UHGV virus genome: UHGV-0020642
Direction: 5' to 3' (one strand)
Length of the DNA stretch: 62,536 nt
From: a virus
The notes beneath the pieces were generated by a model. It was not told the DNA's origin. It saw only the letters and a program-made list of their open reading frames with translations, and did no database searches. The translations under genes and the position numbers were made by a program. Shown here piece by piece: positions 20,166-42,320 of the stretch; within the stretch, counting starts at the first letter, position 1; each line of letters starts with the position of its first letter.

Positions 20166-20729
20166 TTACTTTATACTGTTTAAAACTTCATTCTTAAGTG
20201 GCAAATCATATTCAAATCTACCTCTCAAGCAATTAGTTCTTGTTACTGTGTGTGGCTGTTTAATACCTCTAGCATTTACACAAGCATGACGGCCATCAAT
20301 TACAACCATTATATCTTCCATACCCAATTTCTGTAATACTTCGCAAATATCCATTCCAATTCTTTCTTGAACTTGAAGTCTTTTACTTACCATATCACAA
20401 ATTCTAGGGAATTTAGATAATCCTAATACTTTACCATCCTTAGGAATATAAGCAATATTTATATTGAGTTCCATCAATGCACAATGATGTTCACAATGTG
20501 AAAAACAATGAATACCATTCATAATTACAAGGTCTTTACTGCCAATTTCAAACTGTTTATCAAACATTTCAGCAATATCATCATTACTGTAATTAGCACC
20601 TTCAAAAAGCTCTTTAAAATAGCCTAACATTCTTTTTGGTGTTTCTTTAAGACCTGCTCTTTGTGGTTCTGGGTCAATTTCATTTAATATTGTTTTAAAA
20701 GCTTCTATAAGTTTTTCTTCATCAAACAT
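20166..20729 (-). CDS. folE: GTP cyclohydrolase I
   Basis: CEHHCALMELNI matches the FolE zinc site CEHH; 187 aa. Confidence 0.8.
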   Translation of the reverse strand: MFDEEKLIEAFKTILNEIDPEPQRAGLKETPKRMLGYFKELFEGANYSNDDIAEMFDKQFEIGSKDLVIMNGIHCFSHCEHHCALMELNINIAYIPKDGKVLGLSKFPRICDMVSKRLQVQERIGMDICEVLQKLGMEDIMVVIDGRHACVNARGIKQPHTVTRTNCLRGRFEYDLPLKNEVLNSIK

Positions 20730-21412
20730 TATACACCTCTCTTATCTGGACTCCATACTATTTTATGAAGTTGTACCTGAAATCTAATATCAAATTTTGG
20801 AAATTTTTGTTTTAATATTTTAACTTCTTCTACCAAATCCTCTAAATTAATAGCATTAAAACAAGGACTTATAAATATTGTACTTTTAAAAGTAGGATGA
20901 TTTAACAGAAACCTACGAATAGAACTTAAATCTTCTTGATTTGCTACTACAAATTTAAGAACATCATTTTCGTCCATAATAGAAAAGTTTTCATGTACCA
21001 TTTTTTCTTCCATACCAGAACAAGGACATTTATAATCTACTGTAAAAAATCCCCTGCCTGCTCTTACTGCAAATATATATGGTAATAATTCAACACTTCC
21101 ATTGGTTTCAATATTTATATAATGACCTGTTTTCTGTAATAAATCAATAAGTTCAATAACTGGTCCTTGGTGTAATAATGGTTCTCCACCTGTTATTGTT
21201 ACAGCTTTATATGTAACTTTTTTAACAATATCTTCTAAACTCATTAAATCACCTTGAGTTGCTTCTTGTGCGTACCAAGTATCACAATATTTACATCTTA
21301 AATTACAACCTGCTAATCTAATAAAGGTTACGGGCATACCTGTTCGTATGCCTTCCCCTTCAATACTATCAAAAATCTCTACTACATTTAAACTTGTCAT
21401 TACACACTCCAT
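20729..21412 (-). CDS. queE: 7-carboxy-7-deazaguanine synthase (radical SAM)
   Basis: CNLRCKYCDTWY is the CxxxCxxC radical-SAM cluster motif; GGEP present. Confidence 0.8.
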   Translation of the reverse strand: MECVMTSLNVVEIFDSIEGEGIRTGMPVTFIRLAGCNLRCKYCDTWYAQEATQGDLMSLEDIVKKVTYKAVTITGGEPLLHQGPVIELIDLLQKTGHYINIETNGSVELLPYIFAVRAGRGFFTVDYKCPCSGMEEKMVHENFSIMDENDVLKFVVANQEDLSSIRRFLLNHPTFKSTIFISPCFNAINLEDLVEEVKILKQKFPKFDIRFQVQLHKIVWSPDKRGV

Positions 21413-21795
21413 TCTGCTATATTATATTGACTTTCCTGTACAATTACCTTTGAGCAATATGGAACAAATACATCTCTTTCGTCATTTTGTACTTTATAAT
21501 CATTTTTATTATTATCTAAATACTGATTAACTCTATCCTTAACCCAAGTTGCTATATTTTCAGCTGTTGGATTAAAATCAAATACTTGATTCAAATCATT
21601 ATGGTCCATTTCTTGATGTATCAATTCCTTAATTCTTTTGAAATCTAATAACATACCATGCTGGTTTAATCTATGTCCACTTACTTCAATACTAATTATC
21701 CAATTATGCCCATGATTATTTATACAAGGACTTTGATAATCTAAATTAAGATGGTGCATAGCCGAAATTTCCATTGTTTTTCTAACTTTATACAT
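21400..21795 (-). CDS. queD: 6-carboxy-5,6,7,8-tetrahydropterin synthase
   Basis: CINNHGHNW is the QueD CxxxHGH motif; 131 aa. Confidence 0.8.
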
Positions 21796-22447
21796 TACTA
21801 GCCTCTTTCTCTTGCATATATTCTTTATAACCTTGTTCTCTTAGTTTACAAGCCGGACATTCGTGACAACCACCTTCAACACCATTGTAACAAGTATGGG
21901 TATTATTATAAACATAGTCTAAATAACCTAATTCATCGGCCAATGCCCAAGTTTGTTTTTTGTTTAAATACATTAATGGCGTTACAATATTAAACTGGTA
22001 ATCCATAGCCAATGAAAGTGTTTGCTGTAAAGAATCAATAAATACTCTACGACAATCAGGATATCCACTAAAATCAGTTTCACAACAACCAGTAATAATA
22101 TCGTGAGCTCCTAGTTGTTTAGCATAAATGGCCGCAATTGATAAAAATATATGATTTCTACCATCTACAAAAGTATTAGGATATTTTTCGCCTTTTTCAA
22201 TATCCATTTCAGGATGAGTTAATGCACAACCAGACAAACATTCAAAAATTGGTGTAACTTGTACTAACTTATGAGAAACATTAAAGTCATTACAAATTTT
22301 CTTAGCTTTTTCTAACTCTCCCCAATGATTTTGACCGTAAAAGAATGAAATAGTATGTACTTCATCATATTCCTTTAAAGCCTTTAATAAACAAGTGGTA
22401 CTATCTTGTCCACCACTAAATACAACAACTGCAATTTTCTTATCCAT
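21788..22447 (-). CDS. queC: 7-cyano-7-deazaguanine (preQ0) synthase
   Basis: [12 protein letters not shown] is the PP-loop SGGxDS motif; C-terminal [10 protein letters not shown] zinc motif. Confidence 0.85.
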
Positions 22448-22471
22448 ATTTGTCTCCTTTCGTTGTTAAAA

Positions 22472-22487
22472 TTATTGTATAACAAAA
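22472..22487 (-). promoter_or_regulatory. conserved promoter-like motif TTATTGTATAACAAAA upstream of queC
   Basis: Minus strand reads TTTTGTTATACAATAATTTTAACAACGAAAGGAGACAAATATG. The motif, TTCGTTG element and RBS are arranged as at the 10677 copy. Confidence 0.45.
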
Positions 22488-22555
22488 CCAGTTAAAAAGT
22501 AAAGCCTAATGTTACCGATTCTTTACAAATATCGGCAACACTAGGCAGAAAAAGG

Positions 22556-24127
22556 TTATACCCCAAATCCTCCTTTTAACTCATCTAATTGTCTTGATTT
22601 TTCAATTTCATTAAATTTTTCCTCACCATTACTATAAGTTGCGAATGGGTGTATTGCAATTCCACCACGAGGTGTGAATAAACCCTTGACTTCTAAATAT
22701 TTTGGTTCTAATAATTTAACTAAATCTTTCATTATAATATTAACACAATCTTCATGAAAATCTCCATGGTTTCTAAAACTGAATAGATATAATTTTAGTG
22801 ACTTGCTTTCCACCATTTTCTTATCTGGAATATATTTAATGTGAATTGTTGCAAAATCAGGTTGACCTGTTTTTGGACATAAGCTAGTAAACTCATAAGC
22901 ATTAAATTTTACTACATAATCATTACCTGGATGTTTGTTTTCAAAATACTCTAATTGTGAAGGGTCATAATCATATAAGTATTTTGTATTTTTAGCACCT
23001 AGACCTTTAACAGTACCAAACTCCTCGCCTGAACGTCCTGCGTTGGTTTCTTCACTTACGTTTTCTGGCACCTCTGCACTAGCTTTTACATCGCTTAAAG
23101 ATAATTTTGATTCTTTTGCTTTTGTTTCCATTAATTTTTGGTCTTCTTGTCTTTGTTGTTCCATTAACTCCGCCTTTCTTATAAGTTCTTTATGTTGCTC
23201 AATTGTTTTTGGTTTTAATCTAATAAGTGTACGTTTTTTAATTTCTGTGCCCCTATATTCATAATTTTTAGCCCAATCTAACAAATAAGCTATATTAAAT
23301 TTACATCTTTCTTGATAGCTTGTAGACAAATCCTCAAACTTAAATTTATATTTCTTACATAAATCTTTAACCTGCTGTATTTCTGCAGATGTTTGATGTG
23401 AAATATGCTGTGGATTATCAGTTTGTTTATCACTAATTACAACAGTTCCATTTGGTGTCATTATCCCGCCATTTGCACCTGTCATAATCCAACTAGTTGA
23501 ATCTGCACTTGTAAATGGATATCTTTCTAATACAGGTAAAGATGTCATTCCGAATGCGTGTGTCATAACATTTGGATTACTACTTTGACCAATTATTCTA
23601 AATACAGTTTCAAACCATTCATTTTTTTCTTTTGTTGACCTATCGTTAGCAGGAGAAACTCCAATATATGGAATATGCTTACCATCAAAAGTAGTTTCTA
23701 GCATAGTTACAAGCCAGTCAAAGTCTTCGTTTTGGTGAAATACGGGTAGTATTTTATCTGGACTTTTAACTCTTTCACGCATATACAAATAATTTTCCCA
23801 GCCAATTAAAGGAGCTTCTAAACATTCCTTTCTTGTTTTAGGCTTTCCAAACTTACCAGGAATCTTATCTAATTCGGCCGCAATATAAATAAACTCATCT
23901 CTTTCGTTTAAGAACTCAATATACTTATCGATATCAACTTCTTTACCTACTGTATGTGCAGAAAAAGCACCCGAGTCAATAAATAATTTACCCTTAGCTT
24001 TATTTTCAATCCAAGCTTCTATAACATTTCTATCATTTATCCAACTGGCAAGTCTATTTGCTTTTTTACTAATTAAATATTCTCGCCATGCTGGGTTATC
24101 GCTACCAGCGAAGTACAAATTAAACAT
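22556..24127 (-). CDS. queF: bifunctional protein: N-terminal DpdA-like 7-deazaguanine DNA transglycosylase (inferred) fused to C-terminal preQ0 reductase QueF
   Basis: The C-terminal ~130 aa ([58 protein letters not shown]...[10 protein letters not shown]) is an unambiguous unimodular QueF. The N-terminal ~380 aa has no motif I can name; the DpdA assignment rests only on context (a que cluster with no other transglycosylase) and carries about 0.4 confidence. Confidence 0.7.
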
Positions 24128-38096: not shown

Positions 38097-38603
38097 CTAA
38101 CTTATTTGAGTCATTTGACCTGTAAAATCTTTCATTTTAACTTGCATACATTCATTTATAAATTGTGGTGTAATTTGTTGATTTAAAATTTGTAAAGATT
38201 TCATATAATCTTCTGTTAATTCTTTACTAAAATCTGGTAATTTATAAGCTACTGGCAATACAACAGGCGTACCTGAAGATAATGCAATAGCAAATAAAGG
38301 TAAATTATTATTTAAGAAATTATCAACTGTGCCATCTGCTAGTGTTGGTTCACGTCTTATCCAACCTAAAGAAGTTTCAAAAAATTGTTGTTTAAAACCT
38401 TTTTCTCTTGTAATTTTTAGTTCCTCTAAAAATTCTTCATCTACAACAATTTTACCATTTTCAACTTTATATTTTTCAGGATAAGCCATATAATCATAAT
38501 AGACTTGTTCTTCAACTGCGTAACTTGTAATCTTACTAGAATTCATTTGTTGATTACTACAATTAATAATTTTATTGTTCTCTACATTTAAGTAAAATCC
38601 CAT
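38097..38603 (-). CDS. hypothetical protein (possibly a tail-fibre accessory protein)
   Basis: 168 aa, located after the tail fibre and DGR RT and before the lysis genes. Confidence 0.3.
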   Translation of the reverse strand: MGFYLNVENNKIINCSNQQMNSSKITSYAVEEQVYYDYMAYPEKYKVENGKIVVDEEFLEELKITREKGFKQQFFETSLGWIRREPTLADGTVDNFLNNNLPLFAIALSSGTPVVLPVAYKLPDFSKELTEDYMKSLQILNQQITPQFINECMQVKMKDFTGQMTQIS

Positions 38604-38612
38604 AATTCCTCC

Positions 38613-39908
38613 TTATTCTAAATAAAATGAGTTGCCATTTCTTTTTATTGCTACACTAAAAGGAAAATCTTCAATATTTATCCTTTTTAATTGATTTTCA
38701 ATAACTTTACTTCTTGTGAATGTAATGTGTAATTGTGTATCTTTTTCATCATTCACATACACAAATTGAATTTTATTAGAATCTTCGCCTTTAACTTTAC
38801 AATGCTTCCAAGCGGTTATTATTATTTGCTTGTCTATTAATGTCAATATTGAAACTTTTGTGCCTGTCATTGGAAATTCAGGTTTTGGACCTATATTTTT
38901 AAATTCTTTTATTGACATATCTTTTATTAAATTATCCAAATTTAGGCTCCTTATTAAGTTATATGTGTAACAATGTTTAGCATAACCTCTATATGAATTT
39001 AATGTGCATAGTTGTTTTAGAAATGGTCTTTTATCTCTATTTTTAACTATGTCTAAAACTGCTCTTTTAAGTTTTTTGGCGGTTCTTTTTCTTAAAAGTG
39101 TATAGCCTGTAAAGTGTCTATAACCTAAGAAATCTATACCTTGTTTGCAAGGAAAAACTTCACTGTAACTCATTTTCTGTTTCAATTCTAATTCTACAAA
39201 TTGATGAATTTGTTTTTGGATATCCAAAAGTTGTTCCTTACTATTAGATAGTATAACACAATCATCGCAATATCTACAATAGTTTTTCACTTTTATTTTA
39301 TGTTTTAATAATTTATCAAGTTTATTTAAGTATATATTACCAAATAGTTGGCTGGTAAGATTGCCGATTGGACAATTTTTACCGCCAGGAAAAGAAAATA
39401 CTATATCTTTAATAATTCTTAATAAATATTTATCTTTTATTTTCTTTTGTATCTCTGTAAATAAAATTTGTTGGTCAACAGTAGGATAAAATTTTTTAAT
39501 ATCAGTCTTTAAACAATATTTATTTTTCATTATTAGCTTTCGTACTCTATAACTTCCAGCTATTGGTCCTCTGCCTTTTATACAACCAAAAGTATGAGAA
39601 ATAAAGCCTTTAACAAATATATCTTCTATGATATTATTTATTGCGTGATGTACAATTCTATCTCTTAAAGGTAATATGTAAATAAGTCTGTGTTTACCAT
39701 TTTCAAATATTTGTTTTGTACTGTATTTTGATGTTGTAAATCTATTATTTATCACGTCTTGTCTTAAATTTTCTAAATTAGTTGCAAGATTCTTTTCAAA
39801 TTGTTGCACATCTTTTCTATCTCTTCTACCTCTTGTTGTTTTTAACCAAGCTTCAAAGAAATTTTCTTTAGTTATAAATTTATTCCATAATTTACCAGTT
39901 CTCTTCAA
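38613..39908 (-). CDS. diversity-generating retroelement (DGR) reverse transcriptase
   Basis: NCPIGNLTSQLFGNIYLNKLD carries the DGR-specific I/LGxxxSQ motif in place of the QG of other RTs. YCDDCVIL is RT motif C (YxDD). LPLRDRIVHHAIN is RT motif 2. TTG start with an AAAGGAG RBS. The TR lies about 135 nt upstream. Confidence 0.9.
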   Translation of the reverse strand: MKRTGKLWNKFITKENFFEAWLKTTRGRRDRKDVQQFEKNLATNLENLRQDVINNRFTTSKYSTKQIFENGKHRLIYILPLRDRIVHHAINNIIEDIFVKGFISHTFGCIKGRGPIAGSYRVRKLIMKNKYCLKTDIKKFYPTVDQQILFTEIQKKIKDKYLLRIIKDIVFSFPGGKNCPIGNLTSQLFGNIYLNKLDKLLKHKIKVKNYCRYCDDCVILSNSKEQLLDIQKQIHQFVELELKQKMSYSEVFPCKQGIDFLGYRHFTGYTLLRKRTAKKLKRAVLDIVKNRDKRPFLKQLCTLNSYRGYAKHCYTYNLIRSLNLDNLIKDMSIKEFKNIGPKPEFPMTGTKVSILTLIDKQIIITAWKHCKVKGEDSNKIQFVYVNDEKDTQLHITFTRSKVIENQLKRINIEDFPFSVAIKRNGNSFYLE

Positions 39909-40043
39909 TTTTCTCCTTTAAAATGAAAGGCCCGAATTTTCGCATATTGCTACTCAAACTGACCTTTCCCCGTATTGTTTTTTCGCCGAAACGAAGGATT
40001 TAGGCCCCAGCTTGCACCTTAGGAATCTTCCCAGATACAATAA

Positions 40044-40153
40044 CACGCCCCGGCAACCATTATTCACATTCGAGTTCAACAGGTTATTATTCGAATTAAC
40101 AGACCACGAACCACAGTTCGAAGAGTTGTCGTATTTACCACCTAGTTTCACCA
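40044..40153 (-). repeat. DGR template repeat (TR)
   Basis: 110-bp intergenic copy of the VR, GC-richer than its surroundings. On the minus strand it is Asn-codon rich (translates ..YDNSSNCGSWSVNSNNNLLNSNVNNGCRGV). It differs from the VR only at its adenines. Confidence 0.85.
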
Positions 40154-40268
40154 GGAAGGGCCTTAACCCTATAAGTTTGTTTCACGTTCTAAGCTCTAAG
40201 ATTTTAGGACTTAGGATTTTGTGTTACGGCCCTTCCTCGCAAGCTCGGAAGAGCAGGTTTTGGTTTGG

Positions 40269-42320
40269 TTATGCGTGTACACGTTCTAGGTGCAAGCTCA
40301 CGCCCCGGCAACCATCAGCCACATTCGAGTTCAACAGGTTAATATTCGAACTAACAGACCACGAACCACAGTTCGAAGAGTAGTCGTAACCACCACCTAG
40401 TATCACCACATAAGGAACACCATAAGTACCGCCACGTCTAGCATCTGCAAAGGCATTCCAGTTTTGTGAACCAGTTGCCGCGATTTGTCTAGATACTTGC
40501 CATAAGTAACCGCAACAGCATTCTATAAAGTAACCAGAAATCATACGTTTTCCAGCTGTATCTAAATATCCACCACATTTTTTATCAGTTGGGATATTTG
40601 AACCTTGAATATTCGTTTTCTGGTTAGAACCTTCTGCGAATGTCATAAATTCATCTCTACTTGCTGGCATTTTACCTACCTGTTTTAAATCCCAGAAGAA
40701 GTTTTGATATTGTCTGTTATTAGAAATTGTACCTGCATAGCTAGAAGCAGAAGCTGAACCTGTTCCACTTAACAAGTAAATATCTACCCAAACTCTAACA
40801 TCATTTCTATCTACAAACGCCATGCCTTTATTTCCTGTTTTGGCCGCTGAACGAAAAGCAGGAGTCCAAGAAGAGTTAGGAATAAAGTAACCTGCATTAT
40901 AACCTTTTGCTGGGTGGTTCATCCAAAAACTATCAGCAGGAAGGTCTGGTGCATTACTTTCTGTAACACCCACGCATAAAGTGTGAGCTCCACCTATTTG
41001 AACTGCGTTTGTAATACCTGTAGGTAATTGTTCGTTTAAACTAGCAACTAAATTACCTTGATTATCTAAATAGAAATAATAATCTTTACCATTACTTACT
41101 GTACCGGTATCTAAAATTTCTGAAATTGGTTTAAGCAAATCATTTTCTGTATAGAATGTATCACCGTTTGCTTTTCTAATTGCTGTGCCACCTTTAATAG
41201 TTACATATTGCTTATCTGCAAAAATAAAATTTGGTTGTTTATATTCAAATTCTCTATTTGCATACCAAATAATATTTGCTTTTTTAGGTAATTCTGCAAG
41301 ACATTGAGTTGTATTAGTTAAAGAAGTTTCATCTGCTCCTGTTGCTAATTGTACCATTGGTCTTAATTTAATTGAATTTGGTTGTACTTTTGCATTGTCT
41401 TGGTAAACAGTATTGCCTATTGAAGCATCAATTTCGGCATCGCCCGTGTTATCAGTAGCGCCTGTGGTATTCCAATTAAATACACCTTTACTACTATTAG
41501 AGATACGAACTTGTCTGTTCGAAAGATTATCACCTATAAATGTTCTACCGACATAACCCGCAACATTTGGTAAACTTTCAGAAACAAATTGTCCTACTTT
41601 ACTAACTTCATCAGCTTGCACATAAATTTCTTTAATTTTAGGCACTTTAAATTTTTGATTTGTAGTATCTAAACCAAAGTATGTACAAACACCAGTAGAT
41701 TCAACTTGAGACGCATAAGTTTCATAATCTACACTCGGTATAGAACCTGCAACCAATAAATCATATGGGTTTGTATCACCTGTAAAGTCAGATTTATTAA
41801 ATTCTTGGGCATTACATTCATAAGCCCCATTTAAAGAATTATCTTTTCTAAACGTCCAGAAAAAATCACCTATGTTTCTACCTACTGCTCCTTTATTTTC
41901 TAAAATATAGAAACAATCTTGAGTAGAGTCATATCTTAATGTTACAAGCCAACCTTGTGGAATAGAGCCTGCTGTTAATGCTTGATTTTTAAGTGTTTTA
42001 ATTTGTTTTGCACCAAGACTATTTACATTTACATAACAATCTCCTGTATTAGAAGTTGAGGATTTAAAGACAACTTCCATACCGTTGAAATAACTTGTGG
42101 GTGCTACGTTTTGAGAATCATCTGAAAAAGTTACCGGAGCTAATACATAAGTATTAGAACTATAACTTGTATTCTCATAAAAAGAACCATTACTTGCATA
42201 AACTGGCATTAGGTTGGCTAAATTATTGATACCTTCGCCTATATTATTCATATGAATAGGTCTTACAGTATCATTGTCAACCCAATTAGTTTTTTGGTCC
42301 GCTACTAAATTGTTAGACAT
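40269..42320 (-). CDS. tail fibre protein, DGR target (variable C-terminal domain)
   Basis: 683 aa, last gene of the tail/baseplate cluster. Its C-terminus ...GGGYDYSSNCGSWSVSSNINLLNSNVADGCRGVSLHL carries the VR; the variable residues correspond to AAY/AAA codons in the TR. Confidence 0.75.
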   Translation of the reverse strand: MSNNLVADQKTNWVDNDTVRPIHMNNIGEGINNLANLMPVYASNGSFYENTSYSSNTYVLAPVTFSDDSQNVAPTSYFNGMEVVFKSSTSNTGDCYVNVNSLGAKQIKTLKNQALTAGSIPQGWLVTLRYDSTQDCFYILENKGAVGRNIGDFFWTFRKDNSLNGAYECNAQEFNKSDFTGDTNPYDLLVAGSIPSVDYETYASQVESTGVCTYFGLDTTNQKFKVPKIKEIYVQADEVSKVGQFVSESLPNVAGYVGRTFIGDNLSNRQVRISNSSKGVFNWNTTGATDNTGDAEIDASIGNTVYQDNAKVQPNSIKLRPMVQLATGADETSLTNTTQCLAELPKKANIIWYANREFEYKQPNFIFADKQYVTIKGGTAIRKANGDTFYTENDLLKPISEILDTGTVSNGKDYYFYLDNQGNLVASLNEQLPTGITNAVQIGGAHTLCVGVTESNAPDLPADSFWMNHPAKGYNAGYFIPNSSWTPAFRSAAKTGNKGMAFVDRNDVRVWVDIYLLSGTGSASASSYAGTISNNRQYQNFFWDLKQVGKMPASRDEFMTFAEGSNQKTNIQGSNIPTDKKCGGYLDTAGKRMISGYFIECCCGYLWQVSRQIAATGSQNWNAFADARRGGTYGVPYVVILGGGYDYSSNCGSWSVSSNINLLNSNVADGCRGVSLHLERVHA
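40299..40408 (-). repeat. DGR variable repeat (VR) inside the 3' end of the tail-fibre gene
   Basis: Aligns to the TR at an offset of 255 bp. In my hand alignment there are 10 substitutions, all at minus-strand TR adenines (10 of about 29 As) and none at the other ~81 positions. The VR ends 28 nt before the stop codon. Confidence 0.85.

Follow-up and report, generated by a model that had tools for sequence, protein, structure and literature searches.

The locus described here, on the minus strand of the virus genome UHGV-0020642 (62,536 nt, the whole of which we call the window), raises the question of whether two 110-nt repeats, one at the 3′ end of a predicted tail-fibre gene and the other just upstream of a reverse transcriptase gene, are the variable repeat (VR) and the template repeat (TR) of a diversity-generating retroelement (DGR) that still works. 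We show that the two repeats differ exclusively at template adenines and that the VR differs between otherwise identical sequences from different samples. We put the probability that the locus is a functional DGR of an uncultured human-gut myovirus-like phage, diversifying the tip of its tail fibre, at roughly 0.93.

Every difference between the repeats falls on a template adenine

The initial annotation had aligned the two repeats by hand, with the VR coordinate equal to the TR coordinate plus 255, and had counted ten mismatches over 110 bp, all at minus-strand TR adenines. A computed alignment reproduced this result exactly: the TR (40044..40153, minus strand, 110 nt, including 29 adenines and the shared GC-rich 3′ end GGTTGCCGGGGCGTG) aligns without gaps at an offset of +255 to the VR (40299..40408, minus strand, 110 nt), the minus strand being the functional and coding strand. 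The mismatched TR positions are 40061, 40063, 40064, 40087, 40096, 40127, 40134, 40135, 40136 and 40147, the same ten that had been listed, and since the plus strand carries T at all of them, the coding strand carries A at all of them. Tabulated by template base, the mismatches affect 10 of 29 adenines and none of the 81 other bases (hypergeometric P = 4.3e-7 for all ten falling on A). No mismatch at a non-adenine position and no other register emerged, and a repeat search of the region returned a single direct-repeat family, with a spacing of 255. At the codon level, TR AAA, AAA, AAC, AAT, AAT, AAT and AAT become I, G, Y, S, I, A and D in the VR, in agreement with the earlier description of Asn/Lys-rich template codons that read as Y, S, I, A, D and G in the variable copy.

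These data bear directly on the idea that the repeats are an ordinary duplication of the 3′ end of the gene, whose copies drifted apart through random mutation or recombination and owe nothing to a retroelement. Direct repeats of ~110 bp are known in phage tail-fibre regions and lend this idea some initial appeal. Nevertheless, ten of ten mismatches lie on one base of one copy (P = 4e-7), a DGR-type reverse transcriptase adjoins the repeats, the same layout and the same adenine bias recur in dozens of divergent loci, and the differences between samples are limited to A positions; we therefore consider an ordinary repeat to be already refuted and to retain next to no probability.

When each TR adenine was replaced by N, the resulting pattern matched the window with no mismatch at the TR and VR sites alone, and a search of the window with this pattern and with the GC-rich end of the repeat found no further VRs or remote targets besides the two known copies. 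The 29 template adenines give a capacity of ~2.9e17 DNA variants and ~3.7e15 protein variants, with up to 14 codons re-randomised. The interval between VR and TR is 145 nt long and non-coding. Two open reading frames (ORFs) that extend over both repeats and the intervening gap, at 40012-40383 (plus strand, 123 aa) and 39954-40151 (minus strand, 65 aa), were set aside as spurious by-products of the repeats and not genes.

A predicted Mtd-like target and a DGR-type reverse transcriptase

The VR lies within an ORF of 683 aa (40269..42320, minus strand, stop codon at 40269-40271), of which it encodes residues ~640-669. The product is predicted to be an Mtd-like tail-fibre or receptor-binding protein, with profile matches to Pfam mtd_2nd (2.6e-9) and to a PHROG tail protein family (7.8e-33), and the gene comes after Baseplate_J and Mu Gp48-like genes. 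Residues 363-678 align to residues 55-378 of the Bordetella phage Mtd structures 1yu4, 1yu3 and 1yu2 (E 7e-7), an alignment that puts the VR where Mtd carries its own. By sequence comparison, then, the VR would occupy the 3′ end of a gene for an Mtd-type ligand-binding domain, as in known DGRs. Between the target stop codon and the TR lie 115 non-coding nucleotides.

On the other side of the TR, a 431-aa reverse transcriptase (RT) is encoded from a TTG start at 38613..39908 (minus strand). It matches RVT_1 (1.8e-18) and phrog_1423 (1.2e-102), and its best solved relative is the Bordetella enzyme bRT (PDB 8ub7, E 2.8e-49), to which residues 3-319 align over the whole 328-aa length, so that the first ~320 residues correspond to all of bRT. 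The protein contains IGNLTSQ at residues 181-187 and YCDD, which answer to the [I/V/L]GxxxSQ signature defined for DGR reverse transcriptases (PMC7826257) and to YxDD, and these motifs assign it by sequence to the DGR clade. It also has equivalents of bRT R74, which is invariant, and I181, two residues shown to promote adenine mutagenesis. An adenine-only mismatch pattern, a DGR-clade RT and an Mtd-like target with a 3′ VR together uphold the adenine-specific mutagenic-homing signature that the initial annotation had read from the repeats.

The target gene also varies elsewhere. A comparison of alignment columns 253-310 of the tail-fibre proteins revealed that a central segment of ~50 residues (target residues ~253-305, window ~41400-41560) exists in three unrelated versions in fibres that are otherwise at least 92% identical. 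This swap is most likely a second, DGR-independent source of variation, through exchange of modules by recombination.

The variable repeat has changed where its surroundings have not

The window's target protein and RT are both found verbatim in public assemblies, with the identical target protein on two contigs; ENA ERZ27287243, ENA ERZ28614049 and Logan SRR31228036 are samples in which this phage occurs. A contig from an independent metagenome and a different sample (L093; related loci and contigs are numbered with the prefix L throughout) is identical to the window over 8,052 nt but for ten bases, all of which lie inside the VR at TR-adenine positions, and its TR is identical. With no substitution elsewhere in 8,052 nt, the VR must have been rewritten on a timescale over which there was zero background change. 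Protein comparisons give the same picture. The 90%-identity cluster of the target protein comprises seven sequences, among which are three pairs, each from different samples, that are otherwise identical over 678-686 residues and differ at eight residues, all within the VR. When all seven are compared, variation is seen at 13 of the 14 TR codons that have A as their first or second base and at none of the 23 other codons. More widely, mismatches are dominated by A in every related locus that has both repeats (65+ loci). Collectively, these data show that the VR has turned over very recently while the rest has stayed fixed.

This result also settles most of the weight between a working element and a decayed, non-functional DGR whose adenine-only mismatches are a fossil of past activity. 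A single comparison of TR and VR cannot date events, and the lack of an evident hairpin after the VR and of a detectable Avd would fit with decay. However, the RT reading frame is intact with all catalytic and DGR motifs, the only differences between the L093 contig and the window over 8,052 nt are ten VR bases, the pattern recurs in two more protein pairs that are identical outside the VR, and Hankyphage, whose DGR has the same RT architecture and likewise no Avd, has been shown experimentally to be active in culture (PMC12135933). A fossil thus seems very improbable, and the suggestion that the element "is or was active" is borne out by the between-sample differences.

Several related assemblies (L001, L002, L004 and L013) end in or beside the TR/VR region; the L002 contig, of 62,962 nt, starts 226 nt upstream of the RT. 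Breaks of this kind are to be expected where a repeat with a hypervariable copy disrupts the assembly graph.

The same breaks are the reason to consider that assembly has produced a chimeric or consensus VR in the window from a polymorphic population, so that its substitutions are not all on one molecule. Against this stand the identical protein on two contigs, the intact reading frame and the location of each substitution at an A site. We judge such a chimera to be unlikely, although less so than a fossil, and it would touch the exact haplotype only and not the nature of the element.

Repeat flanks and predicted RNA structure

Beyond the 110-nt block, faint TR/VR homology continues for another 11 nt in the 3′ direction, where the VR reads AGCTTGCACCT (40288..40298, minus strand) and the TR reads TTATTGTATCT (40033..40043, minus strand), with 6 of 11 bases alike. 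This stretch, which lies outside the mutagenised region, is a pair of initiation-of-mutagenic-homing elements, IMH beside the VR and IMH* beside the TR. The IMH-like element is complementary to a segment of the 135-nt spacer between TR and RT (39909..40043, minus strand), which is structured and conserved and has the Shine-Dalgarno sequence AAAGGAG before the TTG start. The segment, AGGUGCAAGCU / AGGTGCAAGCT (40009..40019, minus strand), lies 24 nt 3′ of the TR, is followed by a conserved GCUGG motif and is predicted to serve as an RNA primer or guide. It pairs 11/11 with the VR flank and forms ~6 bp, including G-U, with the TR flank. Compensatory changes keep the pairing of flank and spacer in relatives (one in L003, two in L008), and in a set of 57 non-redundant DGR loci the flanks form longer helices with their own spacers than with permuted ones, 0 of 2000 permutations reaching the observed value.

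For BPP-1, it has been proposed that the spacer RNA primer, linked to the cDNA, pairs better with the IMH of the VR than with the IMH* of the TR (Naorem et al. 2017, PMC5703328). We had entertained the complementarity of spacer and VR flank as a possible novelty and gave up that view on this account. By analogy with that work, the distinct flanks probably confer directionality, and their complementarity is supporting evidence for a mechanism shared with BPP-1.

A second predicted interaction brackets the TR. An RNAalifold consensus contains a 14-bp long-range stem between 14 nt located 5′ of the TR (AGGGUUAAGGCCCU, 40157..40170, minus strand) and the part of the spacer directly 3′ of the primer segment (GGGGCCUAAAUCCU, 39995..40008, minus strand), with several compensatory pairs; the stem is also present in the minimum-free-energy (MFE) fold of the single sequence. 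In 0 of 5000 permutations did mismatched upstream and spacer segments form duplexes as stable as the cognate ones. The folding energy of the TR-spacer RNA alone is unremarkable (z = -0.79), and it is therefore covariation, not energy, that backs the RNA structure.

A weak GCGTG/CACGC stem spans the IMH (-4.9 kcal/mol) and is partly conserved, but it falls within coding sequence. No terminator-like site was found between the target gene and the RT, a promoter scan of the region gave no more matches than shuffled sequences did, and Rfam at gathering threshold had no match in the whole window.

A candidate accessory module in a locus without a detectable Avd

Avd is present in about 74% of DGRs, which makes it typical but not obligatory. 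In the window, the 145-nt interval between VR and TR is too short for a gene, so there is no avd there, and neither bAvd nor 23S_rRNA_IVP matched any of the 59 small ORFs of the window or the ORFs adjacent to the RT. The wider result is the same: bAvd matched 0 of 149 small ORFs around the RT in the related loci that bear the module described below, while the positive control, the Avd of locus L006, which has no such module, scores 3.9e-15. A local jackhmmer search started from the L006 Avd recovered that protein alone. As candidates for cryptic Avds we examined ORFs that some relatives carry between target and TR, of 121 aa (L011 5353-5718, L051 3851-4216, L072 3855-4220) or 129 aa (L098 1777-2166, L099, L100), and rejected them, having found no similarity to bAvd or to any Pfam family.

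What the window has instead is an RT that is ~110 residues longer than bRT. The extension (residues ~322-431, 38616..38945, minus strand) consists of a linker helix and a domain with its core at ~349-431, and the RTs of ~430 aa that make up its clade retain it at identities as low as 40%. Its model, with a core pLDDT (predicted local distance difference test) above 90, is a barrel of five strands in which a helix lies between strands 3 and 4, and fold matches are to the oligonucleotide/oligosaccharide-binding (OB) fold. A closed β-barrel of this make-up characterises OB folds resembling single-stranded DNA-binding protein (SSB), and the extension is predicted to be one. Its isoelectric point (pI) of 9.0 and its obligatory linkage to an RT give indirect support to a predicted binding of single-stranded DNA or RNA.

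A profile of the OB domain retrieved 611 clusters among 1.84 billion representatives, mostly stand-alone proteins of 95-110 aa. Of 91 RT-bearing loci, 19 have the module fused to the RT and 51 encode it in a separate ORF overlapping the RT stop codon. Look-ups seeded with stand-alone OB proteins, and not with the RT, found the order Mtd-like gene, RVT_1 gene, OB gene each time (6 of 6). The module falls into no Pfam or NCBIfam family and into no informative PHROG family, and among the papers searched none ties DGRs to an OB fold. On the basis of fold and gene linkage, the OB module is probably a DGR accessory factor, a binder of single-stranded nucleic acid that does the job Avd does elsewhere. 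It is tempting to go further and to propose that it is a previously unrecognised factor that replaces Avd in a large gut-phage DGR lineage (the 611 clusters), binding spacer RNA and/or single-stranded cDNA during self-primed synthesis and homing; we offer this larger proposal tentatively, at a little under even odds.

Many related DGR loci carry a second small module, of ~95-110 aa, with the motif (F/Y)PK(Y/W)LNTK.DY ... LGFT.EE. In some loci this is a separate gene located after the OB gene or after the RT (L011 7290-7589, L015 5830-6156, L028 5809-6096, L032 5532-5840, L090 5829-6110), and in others it is fused to the RT C-terminus (L017, L067-L070, L073, L075, L076). It has no Pfam match and is absent from the window. 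The ~100-aa ORFs of 18 loci without the OB module belong to this second, different module, and an iterated OB profile did not recruit them.

Directly after the RT, in a position conserved in relatives, lies an ORF for an acidic protein of 168 aa and pI 4.77 (38097..38603, minus strand). It has no Pfam, PHROG or NCBIfam match and only weak similarity to the DUF4376 protein of Hankyphage (E 0.11). Its size and pI, compared with published descriptions, suggest that it may correspond to the "CH1" accessory gene of Avd-less DGRs, and its membership in the element is uncertain.

A proposed mechanism and the points that weigh against it

We propose that read-through from the tail-fibre gene probably yields an RNA of the TR and the 135-nt spacer, and that this RNA would fold so that the 14-bp long-range stem brackets the TR. 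The RT would copy the TR into cDNA and misincorporate at template adenines, a step that we infer because the mismatch pattern is confined to A, the DGR motif is conserved and the equivalents of R74 and I181 are present. The cDNA would then replace the VR at the 3′ end of the Mtd-like gene, re-randomising the receptor-binding tip. Information most likely flows from TR to VR and never in reverse through the spacer RNA attached to the cDNA, which is predicted to pair at 11 of 11 positions with the VR flank and over ~6 bp with the TR flank. The OB-fold domain may act in these steps as a nucleic-acid-binding cofactor, holding the spacer RNA and/or the single-stranded cDNA.

Several points weigh against a functional DGR or against parts of this scheme. 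The evidence for activity comes from comparisons between assemblies, and a VR in a metagenome assembly may be the consensus of a mixed population. Where priming occurs, where the transcript begins and ends and what the OB domain does are all inferred. A DNA hairpin or cruciform just downstream of the VR enhances homing in BPP-1; here, a hairpin in that place scored no better than in shuffled sequences (z = +0.63). Avd proteins are very divergent, so a cryptic Avd is conceivable. Additionally, the TR codons at 40142-40144 and 40130-40132 are AAA, not AAY, which makes TAA, TAG and TGA reachable at VR residues 640 and 644, and an optimised TR would not usually contain two such stop-prone codons; at both residues, the seven natural variants all have sense codons.

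Genome setting

The phage has a genome of ~63 kb and ~30% GC, with genes almost all on one strand. Its terminase is ~50% identical to those of Bacillus and Streptococcus phages, and its nearest relatives are contigs of ~63 kb from human-gut metagenomes. A nucleotide search with the DGR against 50,697 phage records gave no match, and no tRNAs were found in the window.

A 7-deazaguanine (queuosine-precursor) gene cluster on the minus strand (20166-24127) adjoins a family-A DNA polymerase gene. It encodes GTP cyclohydrolase I (20166-20729), a radical-SAM QueE-like protein (20729-21412), PTPS/QueD (21400-21795), QueC (21788-22447) and a protein of 523 aa whose C-terminal domain is QueF-like (22556-24127). 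The presence of this cluster suggests that the phage DNA contains modified guanines.

Significance and comparison with known systems

DGRs often target the tail fibres of gut phages and have been documented thoroughly in that setting, and the element in the window is a standard device for host-range diversification, found in one more uncultured gut phage in a very large catalogue. Its value is that of a clean natural example, in which two metagenome contigs differ solely at template-adenine positions of the VR. It also provides handles on how a DGR may function without Avd, namely an OB module fused or translationally coupled to the RT, a stem that brackets the TR and a spacer segment that matches the VR flank, and the same three features are a possible basis for smaller engineered DGR mutagenesis systems. 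What may merit experimental work is the OB-fold module, which mostly has a coupled gene of its own.

The element resembles the BPP-1 DGR (mtd-avd-TR-brt) in having an Mtd homologue as its target, with the VR encoding part of the C-terminal tip, and a TR immediately upstream of the RT. That RT can be aligned with bRT from end to end and shows both the IGxxxSQ motif and the R74 and I181 equivalents. In both systems the repeats share a GC-rich 3′ end that is followed by an IMH at the VR and a degenerate IMH* at the TR, and in both a segment of spacer RNA pairs better with the former than with the latter, as in the model of Naorem et al. (2017). In contrast to BPP-1, no avd was detected in the window, between VR and TR or elsewhere, and the RT has an extra OB-fold domain of ~110 aa. 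Moreover, no convincing DNA hairpin follows the VR, the IMH spans 11 nt as opposed to 21, and the phage is a low-GC (30%) one from the human gut.

A survey of DGRs found that 29% are without accessory genes and that one RT lineage is without avd, that ~20% of the RTs are extended at the C-terminus by up to ~150 aa in which no motif is recognisable, and that CH1 accessory proteins of 160-169 aa and pI 4.7 flank the RT in some Avd-less DGRs (Wu et al. 2018, PMC5758913). The window would fit with architectures A and E and with RT Lineage 3 of that survey in having a TR-RT core without avd, HRDC or MSL, and its acidic ORF (168 aa, pI 4.77) resembles the CH1 of Architecture E in size and pI, as far as published descriptions allow comparison. 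On the other hand, an extension that forms an OB fold, and an OB gene that is more often separate than fused, are absent from that paper.

Hankyphage records carry a gene annotated as "Avd". In that of Bacteroides phage jmh72_hp (PV107408.1), this gene (L092 5302-5787) has a match to Pfam DUF4376 (1.3e-5) but none to bAvd, and size and charge seem to be the sole grounds for the annotation.

Hankyphage (Bacteroides phage p00) differs from the phage described here in being a 43-kb Mu-like temperate Bacteroides phage, whereas the TerL of the window resembles those of Bacillota phages, and the two RTs share only ~30% identity. The ORF after its RT is the DUF4376 match, whereas its counterpart in the window has no family match. 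Nevertheless, the likeness is considerable. Both are gut phages with a tail-fibre target, a C-terminal VR and a short VR-TR interval without bAvd; an acidic ORF of ~160 aa follows the RT in each; and the alignment of the 434-aa Hankyphage RT with that of the window, at that ~30% identity, spans residues 1-422 of the latter and takes in the C-terminal extension (hhalign E 1e-4). The element in the window belongs to an Avd-less DGR sub-type with an extended RT, as in Hankyphage, and as a member of a well-known system it is, in its main finding, ordinary.

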